NCBI GenBank assembly: GCA_964589445.1 | Contig: CAZPQX010000002.1 | Location: 352-64,351 of the forward strand | Length of the DNA: 64,000 nucleotides | Reading direction: 5' to 3' | From: an uncultured Candidatus Saccharibacteria bacterium | GTDB lineage: Bacteria > Patescibacteriota > Minisyncoccia > Phycocordibacterales > WO2-35-19 | Part shown: one piece after another, positions 10,546-45,685 of the stretch | Position numbering within the stretch: position 1 is the first letter of the stretch | Layout: every line of letters starts with the position of its first letter | Notes under the pieces: model-generated | Databases searched by the model: none | Seen by the model: only the letters and a program-made list of their open reading frames with translations | What the model was told of the DNA's origin: nothing | Translations under genes and position numbers: made by a program

Positions 10546-10650
10546 TAAGATCTTCGCAAAATAAATTTTCTCTCGATACGTAAATTTCTTGCTAGAAATT
10601 TTACTTGTCCTCGCGCCAGTCGCGCTGCGGAATCTCGCGAAAAATTATTT
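10546..10650 (+). repeat. conserved intergenic element, copy 1 (second copy at 45573-45685)
   Basis: About 80% identity over about 100 nt with the grpE-upstream region. Shared CTCGATACG-AAATTT-TTGCTA-AAATTT and GCGCCAGTCGCGCTSCGGAATCTCGC core. Confidence 0.6.
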
Positions 10651-10677
10651 TGCTTAAGATCTACTAAAAAATAAAAA

Positions 10678-27905: not shown

Positions 27906-27920
27906 GTACTCAAGTTATCA

Positions 27921-27990
27921 AAACCCAAAAAGTGCAAAAACAAAAAGCGAGATTTATCTGCCGTTTTTTGTTTTTGCACTTTTTGGGTTT
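27921..27990. repeat. 26-bp perfect inverted repeat with 18-nt spacer
   Basis: aaacccaaaaagtgcaaaaacaaaaa ... tttttgtttttgcactttttgggttt. Confidence 0.7.
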
Positions 27991-28061
27991 TACTGTTTAT
28001 ATAGAAACTTTTACAACTTTTTCTCTTGGCACTTTAGTCTCTGGACTATATAATTGTAAAT

Positions 28062-31030: not shown

Positions 31031-32284
31031 ATGAAAAGTCAAGGAAAAAAAGTCATAGATCCTGAGCGAAGTCGAAGGGTTTTTGTAGGCCTTTCGGGCG
31101 GGGTGGACTCGGCTGTTTCTGCTGCACTCCTCAAGAGCCAGGGTTTTGATGTGACTGGAGTTTTTATCAAGGCTTGGTCACCTCCTGGCTTCGTCTGTAC
31201 ATGGAAAGAAGACAGAAGGAGCGCCATGAGAGCGGCGGCTGTTTTGGATATCCCATTTCTCACTCTTGATTTGGAAAAGGAATACAAAAAGGATGTTGTG
31301 GACTATATGATACGAGAATATAGAGAAGGCAAGACTCCCAACCCTGACGTAATGTGCAATAAGGAAATAAAGTTTGGGCACTTTTTGAAATTTGCTCTCG
31401 AAAATGGCGCTGACTACGTGGCGACGGGGCATTACGCTCGAGTCCATGCAAGTCAGGAGTTGCGAGGAGAAGGTTCTCTCAAAAAGTCCTCGGGTTCCTT
31501 CCCTTCGGTCGGCCAGACTTTTATCGAGAACTTTTCTGTCCTGTTGCTTGAGGGAAAAGATAAGAACAAAGACCAATCATATTTTCTCTGGACACTAACA
31601 CAAGATCAGCTAAAGCACACACTTTTCCCGATTGGGCACTTGGAAAAGTCAGAAGTAAGGAAGCTTGCTCACAAATTTGGTTTGCCTCAAGAAACACGCA
31701 AAGACAGTCAAGGACTCTGCTTCCTCGGCAAGATAGACATGAAAGAATTCTTGAAGGAATATCTCGATGTTAAAAAAGGGGATGTATTGAATGAAAACGG
31801 TGAGGTGATAGGTGAGCATGATGGTGCAGAGCTTTTCACTTTAGGAGAAAGGCACGGGTTTAGTATTTTTAAACAAACAGGTGAGCCAATGTATGTGGTG
31901 AGCAAGGATGTTGAAAAAAATACTATTACGATTGCAGTGAAATATAATTTTGATGAGAAAAATGAGACGGCAGAGCAGGAAAGCTCCTCCTCAAAAAGTC
32001 CTCGGTCCCTCGCCCAGGGCTCAGCCAGACTTTTTTCAGAGGACTTTCCTGCTCTGCCTAGGCGAATTTATTCACAAAACTGGATTTCGGGCGAGGAACC
32101 GAAGGAAGAAATCGAGTGCAGGCTTCGTTATAGGCAGACAAAAATAAAGTGCAGGGTAGAGGGGGATAATTTATTTTTGACAGATGGGGAAATAGTGGCT
32201 CCTGGTCAATCAGTTGTTTTTTATGGGCCTGCCTCTTCGGCGGAAATAAGTGAAATTTGCCTTGGTGGTGCTATAATAGCCTAG
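31031..32284 (+). CDS. mnmA: tRNA-specific 2-thiouridylase MnmA (with two in-frame palindromic insertions)
   Basis: VGLSGGVDSAVSA PP-loop, KDQSYFL, C-terminal PGQSVVFY...CLGGAII. Two insert regions relative to canonical MnmA. Confidence 0.85.
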   Translation: MKSQGKKVIDPERSRRVFVGLSGGVDSAVSAALLKSQGFDVTGVFIKAWSPPGFVCTWKEDRRSAMRAAAVLDIPFLTLDLEKEYKKDVVDYMIREYREGKTPNPDVMCNKEIKFGHFLKFALENGADYVATGHYARVHASQELRGEGSLKKSSGSFPSVGQTFIENFSVLLLEGKDKNKDQSYFLWTLTQDQLKHTLFPIGHLEKSEVRKLAHKFGLPQETRKDSQGLCFLGKIDMKEFLKEYLDVKKGDVLNENGEVIGEHDGAELFTLGERHGFSIFKQTGEPMYVVSKDVEKNTITIAVKYNFDEKNETAEQESSSSKSPRSLAQGSARLFSEDFPALPRRIYSQNWISGEEPKEEIECRLRYRQTKIKCRVEGDNLFLTDGEIVAPGQSVVFYGPASSAEISEICLGGAIIA

Positions 32285-33866: not shown

Positions 33867-33883
33867 AAAACCAGAAAAGAAAA

Positions 33884-33960
33884 AACCTGAAGTAAAATTT
33901 TGATCTCCGTGGGAACCCTTTAGGGAGGAGGAGTCAGAATTTTACTTCAGGTTTTTTTTG
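33884..33960 (+). terminator. long-armed hairpin terminator
   Basis: 16-bp arms aacctgaagtaaaatt / aattttacttcaggtt, about 37-nt spacer, T8. Confidence 0.6.
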
Positions 33961-45552: not shown

Positions 45553-45572
45553 AGACTACCGAGGATTAGGGA

Positions 45573-45685
45573 GCAAAATAGCTTCCTTTGCTCGATACGG
45601 AAATTTTTTGCTAAAAATTTGCCTCTGTCTAGCGCCAGTCGCGCTCCGGAATCTCGCTCAGGAACTATTTTGCTCCCTAATCTGA
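45573..45685 (+). repeat. conserved intergenic element, copy 2 (upstream of grpE-dnaK-dnaJ)
   Basis: Homologous to 10546-10650. Core GCGCCAGTCGCGCTCCGGAATCTCGC at 45632-45657. Confidence 0.6.

Follow-up and report, generated by a model that had tools for sequence, protein, structure and literature searches.

An in-frame palindromic repeat in mnmA and the hairpin family to which it belongs in Patescibacteria

The window analysed here is a stretch of 64,000 nucleotides from an uncultured Candidatus Saccharibacteria bacterium (contig CAZPQX010000002.1, assembly GCA_964589445.1), and our subject is a hairpin-forming repeat which lies twice within its mnmA gene. The open reading frame (ORF) scores 364.8 bits with the NCBIfam equivalog NF001138 (cutoff 284) and aligns to the solved MnmA 2hma with an E-value of 4e-79. 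Its Pfam layout comprises a HUP domain (residues 16-234), the PRC barrel PF20259 (238-302) and the C-terminal barrel PF20258 (348-416), while the PP-loop SGGVDS, C109 and C230 fall in invariant columns of an alignment with 31 Patescibacteria homologs. These homologs carry variable inserts at the same two loops, and some have none at all. A single DNA motif, translated in its three forward and its three reverse frames, accounts for the inserted peptides, and a codon-level comparison with the mnmA genes of four syntenic relatives confirmed that the shared insert motif resides at the DNA level. We refer to the two inserts of the window as copy 1 and copy 2.

Copy 2 is the strongest among the hairpins within long ORFs of the window. 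Its minimum free energy as RNA is -52.7 kcal/mol on the plus strand (z -6.95, none of 200 shuffles being as stable) and -59.1 kcal/mol (z -7.5) on the minus strand. The fold consists of an outer stem of 15+5 bp with one bulged C, a 3-nt internal loop, an 8-bp stem formed by AAAAAGTC and GACTTTTT, and an apical stem-loop. The first-pass annotation had placed a palindromic repeat in frame within mnmA, between the central and the C-terminal domains. Both the gene and the location hold: NF001138 identifies MnmA, and the 30 in-frame codons from A314 to P343 fall in the 45-residue gap between PF20259 and PF20258. The peptide SKSPRSLAQGSARLFSEDFPALP is encoded there as claimed. The extent given at that time, 31985-32057, located the element but not its boundaries, as the real unit is larger (90 nt at 31969-32058). 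Similarly, the 9-bp inverted repeat AAAGTCCTC (31995-32003) and GAGGACTTT (32039-32047) exists in the sequence, but it is not terminal and represents an internal, alternative register of the hairpin. Aligned to 2hma, the window protein has about 30 additional residues at this site, and the segment is missing from the MnmA homologs without inserts. Coordinates are collected in Table 1.

Table 1. The mnmA gene of the window, its two palindromic inserts and the parts of copy 2.
Feature	Position	Strand	Remarks
mnmA, tRNA 2-thiouridine(34) synthase, 417 aa	31031..32284	+	intact ORF; hosts copy 1 and copy 2
Copy 1, decayed sibling, aa 145-173, in the HUP-domain loop after GHYAR	31462..31547	+	covariance model 66.7 bits
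Copy 2, full element: 90-nt near-perfect hairpin, 30 in-frame codons A314-P343 AEQESSSSKSPRSLAQGSARLFSEDFPALP	31969..32058	+	fold; covariance model R1 62.4 bits
Copy 2, left outer arm GGCAGAGCAGGAAAG-c-TCCTC, copy-specific	31969..31989	+	pairs with 32039-32058
Copy 2, conserved left core AAAAAGTCCTCGG; AAAAAGTC within it makes the 8-bp stem	31993..32005	+	exact in both window copies and 76 loci
Copy 2, apical stem-loop, variable tip, 19 nt	32006..32024	+	folds as a small stem-loop
Copy 2, conserved right core CCAGACTTTT	32025..32034	+	exact match shared with copy 1 and family loci
Copy 2, right outer arm GAGGACTTTCCTGCTCTGCC	32039..32058	+	pairs with the left outer arm

Copy 1 is an older, partly decayed sibling of copy 2. 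Its hairpin reaches a z-score of just -1.3, and its site holds about 25 residues more than 2hma. The full-length alignment of the two copies has 67 identical columns out of 93 (72%) and scores 33, compared with -14.6 +/- 4.7 for shuffles (z 10) and 7 for the best of 651 other window segments. An exact 16-mer (31478 and 31990) and an exact 11-mer (31512 and 32024) are shared at equal spacing. The earlier proposal that copy 2 repeats an element at 31478-31550, which had been staked on a pairwise alignment of the two segments, is thus supported far above chance. Both copies have the same orientation and are read in different phases (copy 1 as …SLKKSSGSFPSVGQTFIENFS…), their common core DNA being translated as …KKSSGSFPSVGQTF… versus …KSPRSLAQGSARLF…; the two are thus homologous as DNA and not as protein. 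When the window was scanned with the covariance model of the family, only the two mnmA copies were recovered, the next score (about 23 bits) being the antisense of copy 2. Among the related loci (denoted L with a number), L003 and L002 hold orthologs of copy 1 and L006 an inverted ortholog. The two copies are direct repeats 512 nt apart. Since 512 mod 3 is 2, recombination between them gives an out-of-frame deletion, which would take half of the catalytic domain together with the PRC barrel. No such deletion is present in the 31 aligned homologs, and the suggestion that the two copies mediate deletion or inversion found no support; the inversion which is actually seen takes place within one element, between its own arms. 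As a separate observation, the phase of copy 1 sets AAA-AAG in the zero frame at 31484-31489, a few nucleotides upstream of the apical stem, and many family members carry A-AAA-AAG at this position. The arrangement recalls the layout of the dnaX -1 frameshift.

To delineate the family, one genome for each of 185,579 species was scanned with the exact-core pattern AAAAAGTCCTCGG-N(12-40)-CCAGACTTTT. This yielded 76 loci, every one in a metagenome-assembled genome (MAG) of Patescibacteria, with up to 5 loci per assembly. The carriers are Adlerbacteria, Vogelbacteria, Zambryskibacteria, Ryanbacteria, Nomurabacteria, 'Paceibacterota', Minisyncoccia and some MAGs labelled Saccharibacteria, and no copies were found in viral contigs, plasmids or phages. 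The covariance model R1, built from 77 copies, added 8 more diverged copies from the 612 kb of loci that were fetched, among them two neighbours of opposite orientation in one Mur ligase gene. Rfam was searched at gathering and at E-value thresholds with the region, with six intact copies and with the entire window, and nothing real was matched; the only hit, at the element, was a chance microRNA below threshold (31.5 bits against 90). Likewise, no earlier description of such an element in the candidate phyla radiation (CPR), Patescibacteria or Parcubacteria was found in the literature searched. The window element belongs to a previously undescribed family of hairpin repeats which, within the collection scanned, occurs in Patescibacteria only, in genomes of the Parcubacteria/Paceibacteria type.

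A single fold architecture is common to all 81 copies, whose length ranges from about 75 to 120 nt. The outer stem of about 12-25 bp is copy-specific and self-complementary, loosely following ..CAGAAAAGCTTCTCTC. Inward of it, a short internal loop leads to the conserved 8-bp stem, to the conserved asymmetric junction (CTC-GG-RTCTCC ... GG-CC-A) and finally to a variable apical stem-loop with a tip of 12-38 nt. The outer arms covary. Left arms of different copies share a mean pairwise identity of 39%, and the duplex energy averages -20.8 kcal/mol for the two arms of one copy against -8.3 kcal/mol for arms taken from different copies. RNAalifold reports two-sided changes at 11 of 11 outer-stem pairs, with 5 to 29 sequences per pair.

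Most copies lie in genes: open frames of 600 nt or more enclose 58 of the 81 (about 70%), the two orientations being represented by 32 and 26 copies and all three phases being used. Depending on phase, the forward strand of the same DNA reads KKSSGS..QTF, KSPRS..ARLF or KVLGS.., and the reverse strand KVWPS..RGLF or KSLAE... According to Pfam, the hosts comprise PolA, RecG, UvrB, an IleRS-like synthetase, TGT, an M50 peptidase, Mur ligases, RNase R, a TraG-like protein and MnmA, and the copies are situated mostly between domains. In PolA the linker after the 5'-3' exonuclease domains is occupied in seven genomes and in both orientations; in RecG the site follows the wedge domain. When the UvrB of L027 is aligned to a solved structure, residues 428 and 429 of the solved chain follow each other directly, whereas the query passes from 432 to 469; this clean insertion of 36 aa coincides exactly with the element. 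Permissive linkers can take up more than one copy: in a single Mur ligase gene (L046, 3499-3696), two family members are adjacent in opposite orientations. The non-genic copies (18-23) sit in tight intergenic gaps directly after stop codons, some of them between convergent genes, and resemble A-run/hairpin/T-run terminators in form and position. A terminator and promoter scan made no call at either mnmA copy, both of which lie within the ORF.

These placements bear on two alternative explanations. The mnmA inserts could be ordinary lineage-specific loops, or an internal duplication of mnmA, which evolved at the protein level with no repeat element involved; indeed, it is precisely at these two loops that the length of MnmA differs between homologs. 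We regard this as hardly credible and, in fact, as refuted by the presence of the core in unrelated loci and by the multi-phase reading. The same nucleotide core recurs in unrelated genes and intergenic DNA of dozens of genomes, three phases and two orientations give unrelated peptides, and even the two mnmA copies are in different frames. The second explanation is that the element is lost on the way to the finished protein, as a small intron, by a translational bypass ('hop') or in an intein-like manner, such that MnmA lacks the 30 residues. A strong hairpin within an ORF would suit such a process, and mobile hairpin inserts bypassed by the ribosome occur in yeast mitochondria and T4 gene 60. 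We nevertheless consider removal very unlikely. All 58 genic copies are open and in frame with their hosts, no ribozyme or intron was matched, and 30 residues are far below the size of an intein. Furthermore, the copy in L002 contains an internal frameshift which is compensated within the element. This would be pointless in an untranslated segment and therefore argues that the segment is translated.

Comparison of orthologous sites shows how the elements change after insertion. The MnmA of L006 is 79% identical to that of the window and its copy 2 ortholog is 81% identical, with the central 35 nt unchanged and the right core and part of the arms decayed; the insertion of copy 2 is old. In L004, which is also 79% identical, the core of copy 2 is inverted relative to the window, and the outermost arms are perfectly paired yet different (GGCAGAGCAGG/CCTGCTCTGCC in the window, GCTGTTCAGA/TCTGAACAGC in L004). 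Moreover, a solo remnant of the old left arm persists upstream of the L004 copy. At loop 1 the core orientation is opposite between the window and L006; the right end in L006 is the reverse complement of the left end in the window, with an exact arm of 33 nt in common (…TTGCGAGGAGAAGGTTCTCTCAAAAAGTCCTCG). A third flipped core was found at an orthologous intergenic site of two Adlerbacteria genomes (L013 and L016), whose flanks can be aligned only after one of them is reverse-complemented, although both cores lie on the same strand of the loci. As the flip is seen in three orthologous pairs, in-place inversion recurs. The whole hairpin can also be duplicated: three loci of one genome (L021, L028 and L043) have common arms and different flanks, with one compensated arm change. 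Among 80 metagenomic mnmA loci, just 2 contain the element. The nearest of the metagenomic relatives in which empty or filled sites were sought are merely 60-73% identical, and for this reason the exact insertion boundaries in mnmA are not definable.

Small palindromes inserted into coding DNA are familiar from Rickettsia, whose palindromic elements (RPEs), RPE-1 to RPE-10, were reportedly described by Ogata et al. in Science in 2000. RPEs measure 105-146 bp, form stem-loops and occur in frame in 19 conserved genes (PMC2229807; PMC10969869); the RPE in gmk is translated and the gmk product is active (PMC2229807). Compared by description, the mnmA-type family shares several properties with them. 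Both are small (about 100 nt) dispersed repeats with a long stem-loop, intergenic as well as in frame in housekeeping genes of small-genome bacteria; for both, no transposase and no clear target duplication is known, and the insert is tolerated at protein surfaces or linkers. Of the traits that define the RPE-like class, multiple dispersed copies, one long stem-loop and in-frame positions in conserved genes without disruption were found here; the further trait, a transcribed and translated insert in a protein that stays active, is hinted at indirectly by the open frames, the compensated frameshift and the intact catalytic motifs. The differences concern the host (Patescibacteria versus Alphaproteobacteria), the size (about 75-120 nt versus 105-146 bp) and the conserved part, which in the mnmA-type family is an internal asymmetric core and not terminal repeats, the arms being copy-specific and covarying. 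The use of three phases and both orientations and the documented in-place inversion also set the family apart. Because the host belongs to Patescibacteria, we do not file the element as an RPE member.

We therefore regard copy 2 as, quite probably, an RPE-like, non-autonomous selfish palindromic insertion which is translated and tolerated. According to this model, elements would land or survive in tight gaps after stop codons or in interdomain linkers and surface loops of housekeeping genes, and within genes only frame-keeping, stop-free insertions would persist. The 90 nt of copy 2 would be transcribed and translated into a Ser-rich, probably disordered linker segment of 30 residues, and MnmA is predicted to stay functional with this presumably neutral addition. 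After insertion, the arms would evolve in concert while the asymmetric core flips in place. Such flips most likely arise by recombination or replication template-switching between the inverted arms of the element itself, and core flipping would also rewrite the encoded peptide. Inter-arm exchange of this type would homogenise the arms and could therefore mimic compensatory evolution without selection.

The main rival holds that the hairpin is a selected functional structure, either an RNA or a strand-specific single-stranded DNA, which is recognised by a conserved protein of the host or of the element and actively maintained in genes, for example as a signal for processing, pausing or termination, as a replication or recombination site or as the substrate of an HUH-type enzyme. 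We consider it unlikely. It would explain the heavy stem covariation around a conserved asymmetric junction, the perfect and differing outer stems of the mnmA orthologs, the better folding of the reverse-complement strand and the bias in the arms (both detailed below), and the terminator-like non-coding copies right after stop codons. On the other hand, the 32:26 distribution of orientations in mRNAs, together with the core flips, makes a cis function in mRNA improbable. Copies decay, as exemplified by copy 1 and by the L006 ortholog of copy 2, and the element is patchy among mnmA orthologs. The strand asymmetry of folding derives largely from the invariant core and is therefore not independent for each copy, recombination between arms yields 'compensatory' changes without selection, and no Rfam family was matched.

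Several observations nonetheless weigh against a translated selfish insertion. Conserved core, covarying stems and a strand bias of the fold would also be expected of a selected structured nucleic acid. The reverse-complement strand folds more stably in 74 of 77 copies, irrespective of the orientation of the host gene (30/32, 25/26 and 23/23). The arms alone show a modest bias in the same direction, with 166 A:C against 107 G:T mismatches (42 versus 18 copies, p 4e-4). Core conservation is partly a matter of ascertainment, because the search used the exact core. Most genomes hold copies with arms unrelated to each other; in a recently transposing miniature inverted-repeat transposable element (MITE), the terminal repeats are normally the most conserved part. 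Translation of the insert is suggested by sequence logic only, and the AlphaFold2 model of MnmA, computed from 31 sequences, is poor (pLDDT 59), with the inserts as lowest-confidence coils. Lastly, the agent of mobility was sought among 122 ORFs adjoining 23 non-coding copies, where only housekeeping families and no enrichment of transposases or recombinases were seen. No autonomous element was found, and the family is considered mobile by inference for this reason. The element junctions displayed no convincing target-site duplication. Direct repeats averaged 1.54 nt against 1.04 +/- 0.14 in permutations, and the longest common substring 3.97 against 3.62 +/- 0.11, which amounts to a weak excess of short direct repeats with no consistent length or motif.

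More boldly, the family could be pictured not just as decaying selfish DNA but as a strand-specific, protein-recognised hairpin module which is actively maintained in essential genes of Patescibacteria, with an asymmetric core on which a dedicated transposase or recombinase for single strands would act and a flip-flop that would rewrite a linker of about 30 residues. We hold this to be unlikely; if true, invertible 'coding palindromes' equipped with a maintenance mechanism of their own would form a new class. It was also considered whether the arms arose as inverted duplications of the target, which is unsupported for copy 2 and for UvrB, since homologs there lack the hairpin in its entirety. 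With GC skew as a guide to the direction of replication, the plus strand of the core lies on the G-rich strand in a ratio of 54:27 (31:13 at |skew| >= 0.04). These counts were set aside and are not relied on, because gene orientation and the non-independence of orthologous loci confound them.

Other known systems resemble the family in part. MITEs with intragenic copies, such as the 107-bp form of Correia/NEMIS, ERIC and YPAL, are likewise non-autonomous, about 100-170 bp long and transcribed into stem-loops; some of their copies are in frame in ORFs and others lie downstream of genes and affect the mRNA (PMC2229807). The genic share of about 70% in the mnmA-type family is far above that of these elements. 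In addition, classical MITEs are marked by inverted repeats conserved at the ends throughout a family, by target duplications (TA or others) and, in many cases, by a cognate insertion sequence (IS). Here the left arms are too dissimilar and the conserved part is internal, the junctions show the weak excess of short direct repeats given above, and no IS or transposase with the same ends is encoded by the neighbouring ORFs. The repetitive extragenic palindromes (REP) and bacterial interspersed mosaic elements (BIME), associated with the IS200/IS605-like RAYT, as well as the integron attC sites, share with our family a structure that outlasts sequence, bases that are asymmetric or extrahelical and a preference for folding on one of the strands. 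However, REPs are extragenic, 20-40 nt long, have GTAG on the 5' side and lie on either side of a RAYT gene, whereas the mnmA-type element is about 90 nt long, mostly genic and devoid of a GTAG foot; the ORFs adjoining the non-coding copies included no member of the Y1_Tnp family and no integrase gene was seen either. The attC sites bear RYYYAAC/GTTRRRY boxes at the base of the hairpin and are located between gene cassettes, in contrast to the 8-bp core stem, which is inside a longer stem and within ORFs. Finally, the A-run/hairpin/T-run arrangement of the non-coding members after stop codons resembles terminator-like mobile hairpins such as the pneumococcal SPRITE. The window copies differ from these in being within an ORF and uncalled by the terminator scan, and terminator activity is putative for the non-coding members.

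In-frame palindromic 'selfish DNA' in housekeeping genes has so far been essentially a Rickettsia curiosity. A second, unrelated family in small-genome Patescibacteria, if real, would mean that the phenomenon recurs. It may offer one explanation for the variable-length loops of Patescibacteria proteins, which can confuse annotation, alignment and structure prediction. With its conserved core, covarying arms and in-place inversion, the family provides a natural system in which the persistence and evolution of long palindromes in coding DNA can be followed, and the core motif is a handle for tracing the mobilising activity.

Further variation was noted in MnmA itself. Near the N-terminus, a nine-codon indel (31052-31078, VIDPERSRR) is shared by the window with L004 and L002 and missing from L006 and L003; its DNA includes CCTGAGCGAAGTCGAAGG, a motif which occurs once in the window. 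At about 32206-32232, directly before the C-terminal E-x-CLGG, a third variable site harbors the 9-residue insert GPASSAEIS. Around one third of the aligned homologs have inserts at this position, which differ from each other (PAGKAGDG, PASLEGEG …), and the others have none. Loop 1 of L004 (7711-7810) holds a different in-frame insert, …KVVSSQQPASRDKKENVETLMLDAKC…, with weak hairpin potential (AGCAGCCAGCAG…TGCTTGCTGCT, z -2.0), and similar peptides are encountered in P0007, P0016 and P0064. Loop 1 of MnmA may therefore be a permissive site used by more than one insert family.

Elsewhere in the window, a second palindromic repeat family is represented by two intergenic copies (10548-10662 and 45563-45683) with fold z-scores of -5.7 and -6.9. 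Their branched core, …CTCGATACG.AAATTT..TTGCTA.AAATTT……GCGCCAGTCGCGCT.CGGAATCTCGC, is 84% identical over 67 nt, and the long outer stems are copy-specific yet complementary (AAGATCTTCGCAAAATAA…, GATTAGGGAGCAAAATAG…). This family shares the design principle of the mnmA element and had no match in the 162 fetched loci. Two very long, near-perfect, A/T-rich intergenic hairpins at 27920-27991 and 33878-33959 (-43 and -45 kcal/mol, 30-37% GC) are probably bidirectional terminators; they score about 20 bits with the element model, through the generic A-run/T-run stem only. The segment 56400-64000 contains one or more large genes composed of many divergent repeats centred on GGNAAYGTNGGNATHGGNAC (G-N-V-G-I-G-T), with at least 19 copies at irregular spacings of about 120-1100 nt. 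The 64 kb yielded neither a tRNA gene nor any Rfam family that reached its gathering score. GC skew is positive in all 4-kb bins (+0.08 to +0.24), the plus strand being G-rich, which places the whole window on one replichore arm. Among the fetched loci, L080 carries a group I intron (701-996, 79 bits) and L023 a tmRNA gene (1-369).

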